From an uncultured Anaeroplasmatales bacterium (GTDB taxonomy: Bacteria; Bacillota_I; Bacilli_A; Acholeplasmatales; JAEDCM01), in assembly GCA_964634685.1 (NCBI GenBank), contig CAZWLD010000004.1:12430-76429 (forward strand): a stretch of DNA of 64,000 bases. The letters are read 5' to 3'. This document shows positions 1,443 to 7,193 of this stretch, one piece after another; positions within the stretch are counted from its first letter, which is position 1, and every line of letters begins with the position of its first letter. The notes under the pieces are model-generated. The model saw nothing but the letters and a program-made list of their open reading frames with translations, did not search any database and was not told where the DNA came from. The position numbers and the translations under genes were made by a program.

Positions 1443-2435
1443 ATGATAAAGATTATAAATGATTATTTTAACAAAAGCTTTGAGGAAAAAATTGTTTTCA
1501 CAACCTTTATATCGATAATTTTTAATTTAGTAATGGCATTAGCCAAGGTTTTGTTAGCTTTATTTTCTAGAACATATATTTTCTTGGTTTGTGGCGCTAT
1601 TAATTTGTGTTTAGGTATTTCTAAGGCCGAATGCTATGACGGGATAAAGAAGAATGCCCGGGGAATTGATTTTAATCGAAAAAACAATATCATAAGTGCT
1701 TTATTTATCACATCGGGAGTCTTGTATTCCTATTATATGCTTAGGTTTTTATTGTTTAATCCGAAAACCTTTGATTATACTGAGATTCTAGGAATCACGA
1801 TTGCTCTTGTTTCTTTTATCGAGATTGGTATGGCAATTTATGGAATTTTGAAAATTCATAAAAGCAGTCATTTCTATCGAAATATCAAAATCATCAATTT
1901 AGCTACTGCTAGTTGCGCTATCGTAATGACACAAATAGCGATTTTATCATTTACTAAATATGAAAATTCGTATCTTTATAATGGTATTACAGGATTAATT
2001 GTTGGTGTATTTATGATTATTTTAGGAATATTCATTATTATTTTACCGAAAGTAAGTATGATAGATTGTATTGAAAACAATTATCAAGCCCCAATTAATT
2101 TTCAAGAAAAAAATCCGGATATTGTAAAGAATGGAAAGGTTAAAATCATTTTTTCAAAAAGTCTAATTTATGGTGATTATTATTATCTTGGATATCTTAA
2201 TCAAAATATAATTACTGGCAAGCTTATTCATGAAAGAAAAGGCTTTAAATGTTTTAATATTTATGTTAAAATCATTGTATGTATTTTATCAGAAATATTA
2301 ATTTTTGTGTGGCTTATTGGACGTTTAATCAGCTTCACTAAAAATAGCTGTTTGCCCGAAAGACTCAATCGAATTATGTTAGATTTAGGATGTATACGAA
2401 TAGAATTACCAAGAGGAGGCAATAATAATGTTTGA
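1443..2435 (+). CDS. multi-pass membrane protein, unknown function
   Basis: 330-aa ORF with an RBS (AGGAGAGGG) and several hydrophobic segments. I recognise no motif. Confidence 0.55.
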   Translation: MIKIINDYFNKSFEEKIVFTTFISIIFNLVMALAKVLLALFSRTYIFLVCGAINLCLGISKAECYDGIKKNARGIDFNRKNNIISALFITSGVLYSYYMLRFLLFNPKTFDYTEILGITIALVSFIEIGMAIYGILKIHKSSHFYRNIKIINLATASCAIVMTQIAILSFTKYENSYLYNGITGLIVGVFMIILGIFIIILPKVSMIDCIENNYQAPINFQEKNPDIVKNGKVKIIFSKSLIYGDYYYLGYLNQNIITGKLIHERKGFKCFNIYVKIIVCILSEILIFVWLIGRLISFTKNSCLPERLNRIMLDLGCIRIELPRGGNNNV

Positions 2436-3453
2436 AGTGATTAGTGTGAATTTTTATGAAAATATTAAGAAATTAATTAATGAATCTAGAGAACATATTG
2501 TTACTTATGTGAATACAACTATGTTATTTACTTATTGGAATATTGGAAAAATGATTGTTGAAGAACAAGGTGGTGATAGTAAGGCAAAATATGGAAATAA
2601 ATTAATTGCTGAACTATCAAAGCAGATGACTTTCGATTTCGGAAAAGGGTTTGATGAAAGAAATCTTCGATATATGCGTCAGTTTTATTTATCATTTCCA
2701 ATTTGGAACACAGTGTGTTCCGAATTAAGTTGGTCTCATTATCGTACACTTATCAAAATTGAAGAACAAAAAATAAGAAACTTTTATATGGAGGAAGCAA
2801 TTAAAGGTAACTGGAGTGTAAGACAACTTGAAAGACAAATTGCTACATGCACATATAGCAGAGTAATTGCAAATAATACTAAAGTACAAAAGATTGATAA
2901 TGTTGATGAGTCTACATCGTTAATAAAATATGAACCTAATACAGTTATCAAAGATCCATATATGTTAGAATTTTTAGGATTAGATAATAATGTAAATTAT
3001 TTAGAAAAAGAATTAGAAGATGCATTGATTAATCATTTGCAAAAATTTTTGCTAGAACTTGGTCGAGGTTTCTGTTTTGTTGCAAGGCAAAAAAGGATTA
3101 CTTTTGACAATGAACATTATTTTATTGATTTGGTATTTTATAATGCTATATTAAAATGTTATGTAGTTATAGATTTAAAAACAGACAAGCTATCTCATGA
3201 AGCGTTAGGACAAATTGATTTATATAGAAATTATTATGACCAAGAAGTAAAAATGGCTGATGATAATCCAACAATTGGATTATTACTTGTTACTGAACAA
3301 GATACATTAGTGGCTAAGTATTCAAGTATATACAAAGACCAAAATATATTTGTTTCCAAATATATGACATATATGCCGACGGAAGAAGAATTGAAAAGGG
3401 TTATTAATGAAGAAAAAAGATTAATCGAGGAATATAAAATTTCTAGTAAATAA
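2428..3453 (+). CDS. PDDEXK nuclease-domain protein, YhcG/DUF1016-like
   Basis: DUF1016-style N-terminal region, followed by a C-terminal PD-(D/E)xK-like core (IDLVFYN ... VVIDLKTDKL). Confidence 0.75.
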   Translation: MFEVISVNFYENIKKLINESREHIVTYVNTTMLFTYWNIGKMIVEEQGGDSKAKYGNKLIAELSKQMTFDFGKGFDERNLRYMRQFYLSFPIWNTVCSELSWSHYRTLIKIEEQKIRNFYMEEAIKGNWSVRQLERQIATCTYSRVIANNTKVQKIDNVDESTSLIKYEPNTVIKDPYMLEFLGLDNNVNYLEKELEDALINHLQKFLLELGRGFCFVARQKRITFDNEHYFIDLVFYNAILKCYVVIDLKTDKLSHEALGQIDLYRNYYDQEVKMADDNPTIGLLLVTEQDTLVAKYSSIYKDQNIFVSKYMTYMPTEEELKRVINEEKRLIEEYKISSK

Positions 3454-3654: not shown

Positions 3655-4116
3655 ATGAAAATTGAAATATTAAAAAGAGAAGAATTTGATAAATGGCTAG
3701 AGCAATCAATTCTTGAATATCAAAGGGAATTGACTTTACAAAATAAAATTGATTCGAAAATCGATTTTAGTATTGAGTTTGCGAAAAAGGATTTTTGTGA
3801 ATCCTTAATAGACGGCTATGATACTAAGAATTCACATATCCTTAAAGCAACTGAAAATGGCGAAATTAAAGGATATCTATGGTATTTTGTCCGAGAAAAT
3901 GATGTATTTTTTATATCCACCTTATTTGTTTTTCCGCAATTTAGAAATCAAGGAATAGCGAGTAAGATGTTAAACAGTCTTAAATGTAAAACAATAATGC
4001 TTCATGTTTTTGAATCAAACAAAAGGGCTATTGAATTTTATCAAAGGCGAGGCTTTGAAAGAATTAATATGGAAGCTGAAAAAGGCTCAATTTATATGGT
4101 CAAGCATATAAATTAA
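3655..4116 (+). CDS. GNAT family N-acetyltransferase
   Basis: Acetyl-CoA loop QFRNQGIASKML and a C-terminal AIEFYQRRGF motif. Confidence 0.75.
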   Translation: MKIEILKREEFDKWLEQSILEYQRELTLQNKIDSKIDFSIEFAKKDFCESLIDGYDTKNSHILKATENGEIKGYLWYFVRENDVFFISTLFVFPQFRNQGIASKMLNSLKCKTIMLHVFESNKRAIEFYQRRGFERINMEAEKGSIYMVKHIN

Positions 4117-4139
4117 CCTTTTTTTATTTATTATTTAAA

Positions 4140-4165
4140 ACATTTTGTTCAAAATGTGGTAGAAT
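4140..4165 (+). promoter_or_regulatory. 7-4-7 palindrome (ACATTTT-GTTC-AAAATGT) abutting an extended -10 (TGgTAGAAT); candidate operator and promoter of the GTPase pair
   Basis: The inverted repeat was read directly at 4140..4157. TGGTAGAAT lies at 4157..4165, about 30 nt upstream of the start at 4197. Confidence 0.35.
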
Positions 4166-4196
4166 ATATAGTGGTAGAAAAAGGAGTTGACTAATA

Positions 4197-5501
4197 ATGA
4201 TTAAGGTTGACGTAATTTCTGGCTTTTTAGGAGCTGGAAAAACAACATTAATTAAAAAATTATTTGAATCATCTTTAAAGGATGAAAAGGTAGTATTAAT
4301 TGAAAATGAATTTGGTGAAATTGGAATTGATGGTTCCTTTTTAAAGGATGCAGGAATTGACATTAAGGAAATTAATTCTGGTTGTATTTGTTGTTCTTTG
4401 GTCGGAGATTTTGCAGCTTCAATTAAAGAGGTTATTGCAAAATTTAATCCTGACCGCATTATTATTGAGCCATCTGGTGTCGGAAAGCTATCTGATATTG
4501 TTAATGCCATTGAAAATGTCGATGCCAATTTAGCATTGAATATTCTTGCGACGGTTGTGGATGGAACAAAAGCCAAGATTTATATGAAGAATTTTGGTGA
4601 GTTTTTCAACAATCAGGTTGAAACAGCTAATACCATTATTGTAAGTAAGACTGATAAAATGCAAGAGGATAAAATATTAACTGTTGTCGATCAGCTTAAG
4701 GAAAAGAATGAGCATGCCTTAATTATCACAACTGCAATTAATCTTTTAGATAGTAATAAGCTTTTAGAAACATTAGAAAAATCAGTTTCTTTACGTCAAG
4801 AGCTCTATGAGCAAATGATGGAAGAGCATCATCATCATGATGATGACGAATGTTGTTGTGACCATCATCATCACGACGATGATGAAGAATGTTGTTGTGG
4901 ACACCATCATGATCACGAGCATCATCACCATGACGATGAAGATGAATGTTGTTGTGGACACCATCATGATCACGATGAGGACGAAAATGAGTGCTGTTGC
5001 GGACATCATCATCACGACGATGATGAAGAATGCTGTTGTGGACACCATCATGATCACGAGCATCATCACGACGATGAAGAAGAATGTTGTTGTGGGCATC
5101 ATCATCACGATGAACACCACCATGATGACGAATGTTGTTGCGGACACCATCATCACGACGACGATGATGACGAATGCTGTTGTGGCCATCATCATGATCA
5201 CGAGCATCATCACCATGCTGATGAGGTATTTGTTAGTTGGGGCAAGGAAACACCACTTAGCTTTACGCGCGAACAATTAGAAAAATTCTTAAATGAATTG
5301 GCTAACAATGAGGAAGTTGGTATGGTTCTTCGTTCAAAGGGAATTCTTAAGGCTTCTGACAATGATTCTTGGTATTATTTTGATTTCGTTGCTGGTGATT
5401 ATGATATTCGCTTAGGCGAACCTGATGTTACAGGTCGAGTTTGTGTTATTGGCTCTAAATTAGATATAAAGAGAATTGAACATTTGTTTAGTGAAAGGTA
5501 A
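4197..5501 (+). CDS. COG0523 (CobW/YjiA/ZigA-type) G3E GTPase metallochaperone with a giant His/Asp/Cys-rich insert
   Basis: Walker A GFLGAGKTT, the family-defining CxCC motif (GCICCS), an SKTD specificity motif and a CobW_C-like tail. A 130-aa HHHH-DDD-E-CCC-G array sits between the domains. Confidence 0.9.
   Translation: MIKVDVISGFLGAGKTTLIKKLFESSLKDEKVVLIENEFGEIGIDGSFLKDAGIDIKEINSGCICCSLVGDFAASIKEVIAKFNPDRIIIEPSGVGKLSDIVNAIENVDANLALNILATVVDGTKAKIYMKNFGEFFNNQVETANTIIVSKTDKMQEDKILTVVDQLKEKNEHALIITTAINLLDSNKLLETLEKSVSLRQELYEQMMEEHHHHDDDECCCDHHHHDDDEECCCGHHHDHEHHHHDDEDECCCGHHHDHDEDENECCCGHHHHDDDEECCCGHHHDHEHHHDDEEECCCGHHHHDEHHHDDECCCGHHHHDDDDDECCCGHHHDHEHHHHADEVFVSWGKETPLSFTREQLEKFLNELANNEEVGMVLRSKGILKASDNDSWYYFDFVAGDYDIRLGEPDVTGRVCVIGSKLDIKRIEHLFSER
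4827..5216 (+). repeat. coding tandem array with eight CCC triplets embedded in His/Asp/Glu runs
   Basis: Eight TG(T/C)TG(T/C)TG(T/C) triplets, each flanked by CAT/CAC and GAT/GAC/GAA runs. The unit length is variable, roughly 39-48 nt. Confidence 0.9.
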
Positions 5502-5506
5502 TCGAA

Positions 5507-6442
5507 ATGAGAGATATTCCCGTATTTATTATTAATGGCTTTCTTGATTCTGGAAAAACCTCATTTATTATCGAAACCATTGCTCAAGATGAATTCTACA
5601 AAAAAGGGCGTACTCTAATTATAATGTGCGAGGATGGAGAGATTGAATATGATCCTGAATTCTTGCAAAATTACAATGTTGAACTATTGAAATTTGAAAA
5701 TCAATTAGAATATTCAATGCGTAAGGTTAATGATGTAATTAGAAAAAATGATATTCGTCGGGTAATTGTGGAAATGAACGATATGTGGGATTTTGATGCC
5801 ATTGATTTTCCATCCTATTGCCAGGTTATGCAGGAAGCTTTATTCATAAATTTTGAAACCTTTGGTATTTACTTCAATAACATGCGTCAAAAATTCGTGG
5901 AGCTAATTAAGCAAGCTGATTTGGTTGTCTTTAATCGTTGTGATGATATTGATGAATTACGAAAATACCAAACTAACATTAAAATGATTAATAATCAAGC
6001 TCGATATGTTGCGATGAACACTAGCGGTCAAATCCAAGAAGCATTTTTACGCGAGCTTCCATATGATATCAATGCCGATATCATTGAAATCCAAGATGAT
6101 GATTATGGTATTTGGTATATGGATACCTTTGATAATAAAGAGAATTATGTAAACAAGGTAGTTTGCTTTAATTGTCTAGTCGTATTATCAGATCAATTAC
6201 CAAAGGGAACCTTTATTGCTGGAAGATTAGCTATGACTTGCTGTGCCGATGATGTTCAGCTATTCGGACATCTTTGCAATGATATGCTTAATCTAAATTT
6301 GAAGGATCGCGAGTGGATAAAATTAACCGCAACCATTACCTATGAATATTCCGAAGAATATGAAGAGGAAGAGGCTATCCTAACACCTTTAAAAATTGAA
6401 AGAATAAAAGAAATCAAAACACCAATATTAAATTTTAGCTAA
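5507..6442 (+). CDS. P-loop GTPase-like protein lacking CxCC, fused to a DUF1980/YcgQ-type C-terminal domain (TCCxDD motif)
   Basis: P-loop NGFLDSGKTS and an NRCD motif in place of NKxD, with no CxCC. The C-terminal segment FIAGRLAMTCCADDVQLFG ... REWIKLTATI matches the DUF1980 (TIGR03943) C-terminal pattern as I remember it. Confidence 0.65.
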   Translation: MRDIPVFIINGFLDSGKTSFIIETIAQDEFYKKGRTLIIMCEDGEIEYDPEFLQNYNVELLKFENQLEYSMRKVNDVIRKNDIRRVIVEMNDMWDFDAIDFPSYCQVMQEALFINFETFGIYFNNMRQKFVELIKQADLVVFNRCDDIDELRKYQTNIKMINNQARYVAMNTSGQIQEAFLRELPYDINADIIEIQDDDYGIWYMDTFDNKENYVNKVVCFNCLVVLSDQLPKGTFIAGRLAMTCCADDVQLFGHLCNDMLNLNLKDREWIKLTATITYEYSEEYEEEEAILTPLKIERIKEIKTPILNFS

Positions 6443-6533
6443 ATAAATTGAAATACGTTTTCCGAATAAAAATTCCGGTTTATGTATTTCTTTTTTTCTA
6501 TTTGTGCTAAAATAAAGAAAGGGAGATGGTCAT

Positions 6534-7193
6534 ATGGATTTTTTATCAATTGATGGTCAATATGGCCATTATAAATTGATTTTAAAGGAAATTGAAGTCA
6601 AAAATATTGCTTATATCATAATTGATTCATATTCGGATTTAAAGCTTGTCCTCAAGGAGGCTAAAGCTGTGTTAAATAATTATCATCCGAAGAATATTTA
6701 TTTTCGGGTAAAAGAACCAATTAATGATTATTCTTTGCATTGTACAATTGATTGCTACTTGATGAAGCATCAGCGTTTTAAGATTAATAAGGATATGAAA
6801 TTTAAACCCCTTGATTTGGAAAATCGCTATGATTATCCTACTATGTGCAATAAAGCGATGGAAAAAATTGATTGTAGTGCAACCTTAACAGATGGTGATG
6901 TCTTTCAAATGATGAAGGATCAAACCAACAATATGGGATATATTCAGTATAAAAAGCAATTCGTGGCCGGATATAATATTTGTGGTAACACCCTTGATAC
7001 CTTCTTTGTCGATAAGGCTCATCAAAATCAAGGAATTGGTAAAATGGCTTTAGAGAAAATTATTAATAAAATCGATGATGATGTTTATCTAAATGTTGCT
7101 TCGACAAATAGTATTGCAATTAATTTATACCAAAGATATGGATTTACTTATGATCACACCGTTAGTTACTTTTATAAATTGGAGGAAAAATAA
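6534..7193 (+). CDS. GNAT family N-acetyltransferase
   Basis: C-terminal HQNQGIGKMALEKII and AINLYQRYGF motifs. RBS AGGGAGA. Confidence 0.7.
   Translation: MDFLSIDGQYGHYKLILKEIEVKNIAYIIIDSYSDLKLVLKEAKAVLNNYHPKNIYFRVKEPINDYSLHCTIDCYLMKHQRFKINKDMKFKPLDLENRYDYPTMCNKAMEKIDCSATLTDGDVFQMMKDQTNNMGYIQYKKQFVAGYNICGNTLDTFFVDKAHQNQGIGKMALEKIINKIDDDVYLNVASTNSIAINLYQRYGFTYDHTVSYFYKLEEK

Follow-up and report, generated by a model that had tools for sequence, protein, structure and literature searches.

A COG0523-like P-loop domain fused to DUF1980_C and encoded directly behind a COG0523 gene in gut Bacilli and Clostridia

The fusion gene and its COG0523 partner

The window analyzed here is a stretch of 64,000 nt (GC about 31%) from an uncultured Anaeroplasmatales bacterium (contig CAZWLD010000004.1), and our subject is a gene pair on its plus strand. 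The first gene (4197..5501, +) encodes a canonical COG0523 protein of 434 aa. The second, directly 3′ of it (5507..6442, +; ATG start), encodes a 311-aa protein in which a P-loop domain is joined to a DUF1980_C domain and which is soluble by prediction; we refer to it as the fusion protein. An earlier note on this DNA, made from the letters alone, had placed the fusion gene 5 nt after the COG0523 gene, and the listing of open reading frames (ORFs) confirms this, the COG0523 ORF ending at 5501 and the intergenic gap occupying 5502..5506 (+; sequence 5481-5515). The Shine-Dalgarno (SD)-like GAAAGG of the fusion gene falls within the end of the COG0523 gene, which together with the 5-nt gap suggests co-transcription and translational coupling.

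Profile searches assigned the two halves of the fusion protein to different families. In Pfam, residues 5-167 match cobW (PF02492; E=1.8e-9, 37.9 bits against a cutoff of 20.7) and residues 182-306 match DUF1980_C (PF21537; E=6.4e-17, 62 bits, cutoff 25.9), while the NCBIfam profile TIGR03943 aligns over its positions 108-217 of 221 only (E=2.2e-14), its 53.4 bits remaining below the full-length cutoff of 88.8 because only half of the canonical protein is present. These matches bear out the proposal of the earlier note that the C terminus is a DUF1980/TIGR03943 domain. That this domain is soluble and fused to a GTPase-like module likewise holds, as cobW and DUF1980_C share one ORF and no transmembrane segment was predicted in its product. 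Characteristic stretches are GFLDSGKTS at residues 11-19, NRCD at 143-146, AGRLAMTCCADDVQLFG at 238-254 and WIKLTA at 270-275. Pfam gave no match in the fusion protein to PF09323, the DUF1980 domain that provides the transmembrane anchor, or to PF07683 (CobW_C); the scores of the protein fall far under all NCBIfam COG0523 equivalog cutoffs, and a sequence search of the PDB with the whole protein returned nothing meaningful, that is, no solved homologue. The protein is a member of neither family but combines a COG0523-derived G-like domain with DUF1980_C: it stands outside COG0523 because it lacks CxCC and CobW_C/RxKG, the features that define that family, and outside TIGR03943 because it lacks the transmembrane domain, the adjacent permease and a full-length score.

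The N-terminal domain (residues 5-167; 5519..6007, +) was assigned from Pfam, column counts, profile-profile alignment and Foldseek. When 85 fusion G-like domains were aligned as a profile with the G domains of 73 neighboring COG0523 proteins, the two were co-linear over the entire domain, and, like the COG0523 proteins (YjiA, ZigA, ZagA/YciC, CobW, ZNG1), the fusion family has the G3E P-loop fold and keeps Walker A, the ExGE switch-I segment and the Walker-B Glu. Walker A, G11-x-L-[DE]-[SA]-G16-K17-[TS]-[TS]-F20, is invariant in the fusion family (G11-FLDSGKTS in the window protein), with G11-x4-G16-K17-T18 invariant across 120 homologues. The segment C41-E42-[ED]-G44-E45-x-E47, which reads C41-E42-D-G44-E45-I-E47 in the window protein, aligns with COG0523 N-E-F-G-E-I-G; the Walker-B Glu, E89, is invariant in the family and begins the Walker B/switch II stretch E89-M-N91-D-M93-W94 of the window protein. 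The invariance of Walker A and of the acidic ExGExE suggests that nucleotide and Mg binding are retained and that the domain is not a dead scaffold. Foldseek, run with the full-length AlphaFold2 (AF2) model, matched HypB (2hf8, E=6e-7), YjiA (4ixm), UreG and Ffh/FtsY.

Other landmarks of COG0523 are missing or degenerate in the fusion family. The GCICCSL (CxCC) loop is exactly removed by a 7-residue deletion, and a C.CC motif was found in 0/85 family members; the G3E-like N-terminal domain without CxCC that the earlier note had described is thus substantiated, both by the cobW match and by the deletion. A second 7-residue deletion follows switch II, where COG0523 EPSGVGKLSD gives way to E-x-N-[G/C/T]-M-W; at the position of the switch-II Gly, G, C and T occur in 53, 30 and 22 of 120 fusion homologues, and the window protein has D92. 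Of 120 sequences, 80 have N, 25 have I and 13 have T at position 143, the first of NKxD, so that the NRCD pointed out in the earlier note is indeed present at residues 143-146 but does not represent a conserved G4 motif. DUF1980_C with its predicted OB (oligonucleotide/oligosaccharide-binding) fold takes the place of CobW_C/RxKG: RxKG occurs anywhere in the sequence in 6/85 fusion proteins, versus 73/73 in the CobW_C of the orthologous COG0523 neighbors. In ZigA and MigC, RxKG is a cis-acting arginine finger needed for GTP hydrolysis, and RxKG or the C-terminal domain (CTD) can act in trans on a cognate G domain (2026 preprint, PMC13001444). Judged from these alignments, the N-terminal domain is probably a COG0523 paralogue that is likely to have kept nucleotide binding and unlikely to be a canonical, self-activated GTPase. 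Diverged relatives are not without precedent, as Rv0106-type COG0523-like proteins lack the canonical CxCC and Walker A (Haas 2009, PMC2770081); while sharing the absence of CxCC, they differ from the fusion family in having neither Walker A nor DUF1980_C, whereas the fusion family has an invariant Walker A and another C-terminal domain.

The C-terminal domain (residues 182-306; 6050..6424, +), assigned from PF21537, the C-terminal half of TIGR03943, AF2 and Foldseek, is predicted to adopt an OB fold, a closed β-barrel of five strands capped by a helix. Modeled alone, it gave a helix followed by five strands (predicted local distance difference test [pLDDT] 94.4, predicted template modeling score [pTM] 0.87), and a Foldseek search of the PDB with this model returned OB folds only (probability 1.0, 5-13% identity), namely TEN1 (template modeling [TM] score 0.56/0.60), RPA14/32, single-stranded DNA-binding proteins, the MCM OB domain and the N-domain of AsnRS. 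Residues G239, R240, M243, T244, C245, C246, D249, Q251, G254, H255, L256 and C257 are invariant or near-invariant, and column counts show C245, C246 and D249 to be invariant in the fusion family. The CCxxD sits in the predicted β2-β3 hairpin, with Q251, H255 and C257 at alternate positions along β3, on the face with which OB folds usually bind their ligands. The domain shares with the DUF1980/TIGR03943 proteins (YcgQ, ScfB, SMU.747) the PF21537 motif R-h-x-h-[ST]-C-C-x-x-D...[YF]-G, canonical R-F-G-I-S-C-C-A-A-D-A-S-V-Y-G aligning with G-R-L-A-M-T-C-C-A-D-D-V-Q-L-F-G of the fusion protein. A phmmer search of 1.84e9 representatives with the C-domain retrieved mainly fusion proteins or N-terminally truncated fragments. 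Among its matches, P0132 and P0170 were discarded as spurious repeat proteins, and P0161 and P0249 resemble chimeric calls.

The upstream partner is a complete COG0523 protein with Pfam matches to cobW (E=9e-37) and CobW_C (E=9e-9), and with Walker A, ENEFGE, GCICCS (CxCC), EPSG, SKTD and, in CobW_C, RSKG (RxKG). A linker of ~130 aa consists of His/Asp/Cys (CCC) repeats. This linker (region 4837-5280) is unusually large, with HHHHDDDECCC-type repeats, and of the 434 residues of the protein 52 are His and 28 are Cys; the orthologues contain 15-70 His and usually far fewer Cys. Its length also differs between close relatives: four strains (L001-L004) encode one identical fusion protein, P0037, next to COG0523 proteins of 330, 352 or 374 aa (6932-7990 in L001, 6866-7990 in L002, 2720-3712 in L004), and these 22-aa steps indicate that the number of His/Cys-rich linker repeats varies within one species.

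Conservation of the gene pair and its neighborhood

To see how far the architecture extends, we made a word-indexed search of 5.8e9 proteins, which yielded ~985 fusion clusters at 90% identity; in the best 120 of these 985 clusters, nearly all proteins are ~310 aa long and show an identical pair of Pfam domains. When one genome of each GTDB species was scanned, at least 574 proved to encode a relative, the carriers being gut-type Bacilli (Acholeplasmatales, Anaeroplasma, Firmicutes CAG:449) and Clostridia (Lachnospiraceae, Blautia, Christensenellaceae and others). The window is probably closest to the members from Bacilli. Presence in hundreds of gut Firmicutes species, including small-genome Bacilli of the RF39/Acholeplasmatales type, suggests a housekeeping role. 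Where the proteins are named at all, they are called "GTPase," "G3E family GTPase," "putative membrane protein," "hypothetical" or "GTP-binding protein"; the pair of Vescimonas fastidiosa appears in RefSeq as "CobW family GTP-binding protein" plus "GTP-binding protein." The architecture is therefore already in the databases under generic names; in the searchable literature on DUF1980, TIGR03943, COG3689, UPF0703, COG0701 with COG0523, and PF03773, we found no description of the fusion or of its obligate pairing.

This pairing proved to be strict. From 80 species-representative loci, 4 of which break off no more than ~500 nt from the fusion gene, 76 were informative, and in all 76 a cobW+CobW_C gene with CxCC and 15-70 His lies directly 5′ of the fusion gene on the same strand. 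The same arrangement is seen in the four strain-level contigs encoding P0037 and in Vescimonas. Between the COG0523 stop and the fusion start, the 76 loci have a median gap of 20 nt, with 64 gaps of ≤50 nt and five 4-nt overlaps. The earlier note had made its proposal depend on the two genes being conserved together, and this they are across Bacilli and Clostridia.

Clustering of all neighboring ORFs revealed no conserved third gene, no other family being found in more than 14 of the 80 loci. The neighbors that do recur are mfd, pth, clpC, radA and a sigma factor, and they reflect lineage synteny; in Lachnospiraceae, mfd, pth, radA and clpC are frequent. Such neighbors, together with the nearest solved folds of the C-domain (ssDNA-binding and telomere OB folds, the MCM OB domain), could be taken to mean that the pair has no business with metals, the OB fold binding nucleic acid or another macromolecule and the two proteins serving a housekeeping process, for example ribosome or DNA transactions. 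We consider this very improbable. The fold similarity is generic (TM score about 0.4-0.6, identity 5-13%), and the acidity of the C-domain (pI 4.4; family median 5.3) argues against nucleic-acid binding; the invariant Cys-Cys-x-x-Asp is common to membrane proteins of Zur-box operons (see below), the partner is of a bona fide metallochaperone type, and the housekeeping neighbors are lineage-specific, each present in at most 14/80 loci. As a separate observation, in about nine Lachnospiraceae loci (including L029, L046, L083 and L067, there at 6045-6557) a protein of ~170 aa that ends in a SEC-C-type zinc-binding motif (CPCGSGKKYKKCCG) is encoded directly 5′ of the pair; it may represent a client restricted to this lineage, or its position may reflect nothing more than synteny.

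Upstream of the pair in the window, we read from the sequence a candidate operon promoter and ribosome-binding site (4137..4196, +), with an extended −10 TGTGGTAGAAT at about 4155-4165 and the SD sequence AAAGGAG preceding the COG0523 ATG. A similar ACATTTT...TGTGGTATAAT arrangement is present in related Bacilli loci. Between the putative −35 and the extended −10 lies a perfect 8-bp inverted repeat, ACATTTTG-TT-CAAAATGT (4140-4157), which we do not claim as an operator, the repeat not being conserved in the related Bacilli loci. Blautia-type loci show two conserved GC-rich hairpins 5′ of the operon (GGGGCGGAAG...CTTTCGTCCCC and ACCAGGGGG...CCTGGT), located about 40-80 nt 5′ of the COG0523 gene in L033, L039, L050, L053, L054 and L070 and also seen in L043, L064, L073 and L076; Rfam gave no match to these hairpins, which probably serve to terminate the preceding genes.

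Canonical DUF1980 operons and their zinc context

The canonical relatives of the C-terminal domain are encoded in pairs with a permease: YcgQ/YcgR in B. subtilis, ScfB/ScfA in S. pyogenes and SMU.747/746 in S. mutans (PMC5584981, PMC12173739). ScfAB is needed for the in vivo fitness and dissemination of group A Streptococcus, yet what ScfAB/YcgQR do is unknown, and ScfAB still counted as genomic "dark matter" in a review from 2025 (PMC5584981, PMC12173739). The canonical DUF1980 proteins have an N-terminal PF09323 domain with ~3 transmembrane segments and, between the second and third, a CxCGxDH or His-rich loop; in the fusion protein, the soluble G-like domain stands in place of PF09323. The permeases carry a CEC motif, as read from their sequences. 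A tblastn search of plasmids with the C-domain led to genes of Priestia and Enterococcus gilvus that are annotated "TIGR03943 family protein" and in every case follow a "permease" gene, and Pfam identified the two products as PF09323+PF21537 beside PF03773 (ArsP_1).

For a broader view, we surveyed 60 metagenome loci and sampled six genome loci. An ArsP_1 gene lies directly 5′ of the canonical DUF1980 gene in 41/41 metagenome loci with enough sequence, in agreement with the statement of the earlier note that canonical DUF1980 proteins pair with a membrane permease. That they often occur in Zur-type contexts is supported too. Among metagenome loci of ≥6 kb, 13/31 contain a cobW or ZnuA homologue, and the genome loci provide fitting examples: ZnuA and FolE2 are encoded nearby in B. 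weihaiensis, a divergent cobW+CobW_C gene in Anaerobacillus, and two cobW genes, ZnuA and paralogues of L33 and S14 in Heyndrickxia, while a JGI contig shows S14-znuABC-cobW-ArsP_1-DUF1980 on a single strand. Two of the six sampled genome loci have no clear zinc context. With ≤2 mismatches, the Firmicutes Zur box TCGTAATNATTACGA is found 5′ of the permease gene in 16 of 39 canonical loci (metagenome plus annotated ones), where shuffled sequences predict 0.1. Four matches are perfect (L098, L126, L129, L135); the other loci include L102, L103, L105, L108, L113, L121, L122 and L090, the boxes lying 90-320 nt 5′ of the ArsP_1 gene. Many canonical loci are mutually related, such that the counts of Zur boxes and neighbors do not represent independent events; despite this kinship the Zur-box signal is unambiguous. 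It implies that canonical ArsP_1+DUF1980 operons constitute an unrecognized family of Zur-regulated transporters, and in our literature search no paper was found that states a Zur-type context of DUF1980 operons.

Two further features of canonical loci deserve mention. On plasmid pA of Priestia sp. J2 (L085, 6765-6935), a 56-aa "GTP-binding protein" immediately after the permease+TIGR03943 pair is a CobW_C fragment. In addition, the DUF1980 gene of many metagenome loci (L099-L109, L113, L117, L119) is followed, at a distance of a few hundred nt, by another ArsP_1-like permease gene (e.g., at 9262-10245 in L099), giving the order permease-DUF1980-permease.

Unlike the canonical genes, which follow an ArsP_1 permease and often a Zur box, the fusion loci have neither. 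Using a hidden Markov model (HMM) built from eight ArsP_1 permeases, we searched 1.22 Mb, i.e., the whole window plus 85 related loci with 86 fusion genes in all, and obtained zero matches. The multi-transmembrane proteins scanned in the window itself are an unassigned 330-aa protein with only a weak MFS match, Na_Ca_ex, TrkH, HisKA_7TM and CitMHS/ArsB, none of them ArsP_1. The observation of the earlier note that no membrane partner lies nearby is therefore robust for the gene neighborhood, meaning ±8 kb per fusion gene and 64 kb here.

These data bear on the idea that the fusion protein is a soluble substitute for ScfB/YcgQ, whose DUF1980_C docks on an ArsP_1-type permease encoded elsewhere and so couples the transporter to the COG0523 protein as a membrane-to-chaperone adaptor. 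The constant company of canonical DUF1980_C and ArsP_1 (41/41) would fit, as would the frequent location of COG0523 genes next to canonical ArsP_1+DUF1980 operons, and our view is confined to the stretches named above (±8 kb per fusion gene, 64 kb in this genome). Still, we regard an adaptor as unlikely, given that no ArsP_1 homologue was seen in 1.22 Mb around 86 fusion genes, that the anchoring PF09323 is absent from the fusion, and that the operon forms a self-contained pair amid very different genomic neighborhoods.

A proposed metal-handling module

We favor, with a probability of about 0.55, the interpretation that the two genes encode a cytosolic module for metal handling, with the fusion protein as its soluble second subunit and zinc as the most probable metal. 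Zinc is proposed for the pair because its DUF1980_C CC..D motif is common to canonical proteins found in a Zur/ZnuA context. The first subunit would be the complete COG0523 metallochaperone, with a GTP-driven switch, a CxCC site, a His/Cys/Asp-rich linker as store, and a CobW_C whose RxKG finger may serve as its own GTPase-activating protein (GAP). The second would be a diverged COG0523 paralogue that has kept the P-loop and the acidic ExGExE switch-I segment but no longer has the CxCC loop, a canonical ExxG in switch II (in the window protein), a reliable NKxD or any part of the CobW_C/RxKG domain. In place of the latter it carries DUF1980_C with its predicted OB fold, whose invariant Cys-Cys-x-x-Asp hairpin shows the same motif as the ScfB/YcgQ proteins of Zur-regulated ArsP_1 permeases. 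We envisage that the degenerate G-like domain, nucleotide-binding and probably poor in hydrolysis, docks this subunit onto the COG0523 protein, and that the CC/D site, with Q251, H255 and C257 near, exchanges a thiophilic metal ion with the CxCC and His-Cys store of the partner, the exchange being governed by the GTP cycle of the latter. A metal hand-off between the two proteins, as the earlier note had suggested, is a reasonable hypothesis, in which we infer the course from donor store to TCC acceptor along with physical interaction, metal binding and the identity of the metal.

Paired systems are known among the SIMIBI/G3E NTPases. In HypB and UreG dimers, which have a metal site at the interface, and in the SRP54-FtsY heterodimer, related P-loop domains meet in a nucleotide-dependent manner with metal ligands near switch I. 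By analogy, the two related P-loop domains of our pair might meet as those of SIMIBI/G3E pairs do, HypB, UreG and Ffh/FtsY being the best Foldseek matches. We know of no COG0523 protein for which a heterodimer has been shown.

The features lost from the second subunit would also suit a different relationship, in which the fusion protein is a client, buffer or sensor in the cytosol that receives metal at its CC site from the COG0523 protein, or a pseudo-GTPase that regulates the GTPase cycle of its partner with no part in metal handling. A protein that has neither CxCC nor RxKG nor the switch-II Gly (D92 here), and in which NKxD is degenerate, has the look of a pseudo-enzyme; COG0523 CTDs can work in trans on cognate G domains (PMC13001444), and tight gene pairing suits any stoichiometric relationship. 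In our estimation the chance of such a role is small, as the invariant Walker A and acidic ExGExE favor retained nucleotide/Mg binding over a dead scaffold, and one CC site would make a poor store compared with the His/Cys array of the partner.

Several points weigh against a zinc-handling heteromeric module. In the full-length AF2 model (pLDDT 90.2), the pTM is just 0.61, leaving the mutual orientation of the two domains undefined. According to a review (PMC11672702), COG0523 proteins may act as monomers whose docked CTD stands in the way of HypB-like dimerization, and a heterodimer of G domains is thus not a given. As to the metal, scans with Firmicutes and actinobacterial Zur consensus sequences found a box with ≤3 mismatches upstream of 0/74 fusion operons, like shuffles (in the window, the nearest match deviates from the consensus at 4 positions), and Fur, PerR and AdcR boxes were not enriched over shuffles upstream of the same 74 operons. 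Near the pair, neither the window nor eight Blautia/Lachnospiraceae loci, those with the conserved-looking upstream hairpins, yielded a riboswitch or any other Rfam family. Fusion operons hence do not look zinc-starvation-induced, unlike the canonical system, but look constitutive or at least regulated in another way; for want of metal-regulator boxes and riboswitches, it is the canonical relatives only that speak for zinc. Even there, two Ni/Co ABC transporter clusters surround the canonical locus of the Priestia plasmid, which hints that zinc may not always be the metal. Finally, canonical DUF1980_C could be extracellular, the positive-inside count on canonical proteins being crude and not decisive for its topology; the fusion would then represent a metal-capturing domain re-used inside the cell.

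More tentatively, the zinc-handling module may be part of a larger scheme. The pair would be a dedicated heteromeric G3E metallochaperone, made of a competent COG0523 protein and an obligate pseudo-GTPase paralogue with an OB-fold Cys-Cys acceptor/donor; DUF1980_C would be an unrecognized class of zinc-binding OB fold, and ScfAB/YcgRQ a Zur-regulated zinc importer that feeds COG0523. We think it possible but doubtful that all of this holds. As a "Rosetta stone," the fusion, along with the Zur boxes and the ZnuA/COG0523 neighbors, ties DUF1980/ScfB-ArsP_1/ScfA to zinc or metal homeostasis and makes the function of ScfAB, a locus of streptococcal fitness and virulence, testable. Widespread as COG0523 proteins are, little is known of their clients or of how they transfer metal, and the pair offers a defined two-protein system for measuring transfer, nucleotide dependence and trans-GAP effects.

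As for the surroundings of the pair in the window, it is flanked by two GNAT acetyltransferase genes (3655-4116 and 6534-7193), and a YhcG/DUF1016 PDDEXK nuclease gene is found further 5′ (2428-3453). Genes for GNAT, Na_Ca_ex and a 2-thiouracil desulfurase are also near the pair in L001-L004, and having these in common points to shared synteny of the window with those Bacilli. Far from the pair, at 63126-63209 (+), Rfam placed a c-di-GMP-I riboswitch (RF01051; 75 bits, E=6.7e-13).

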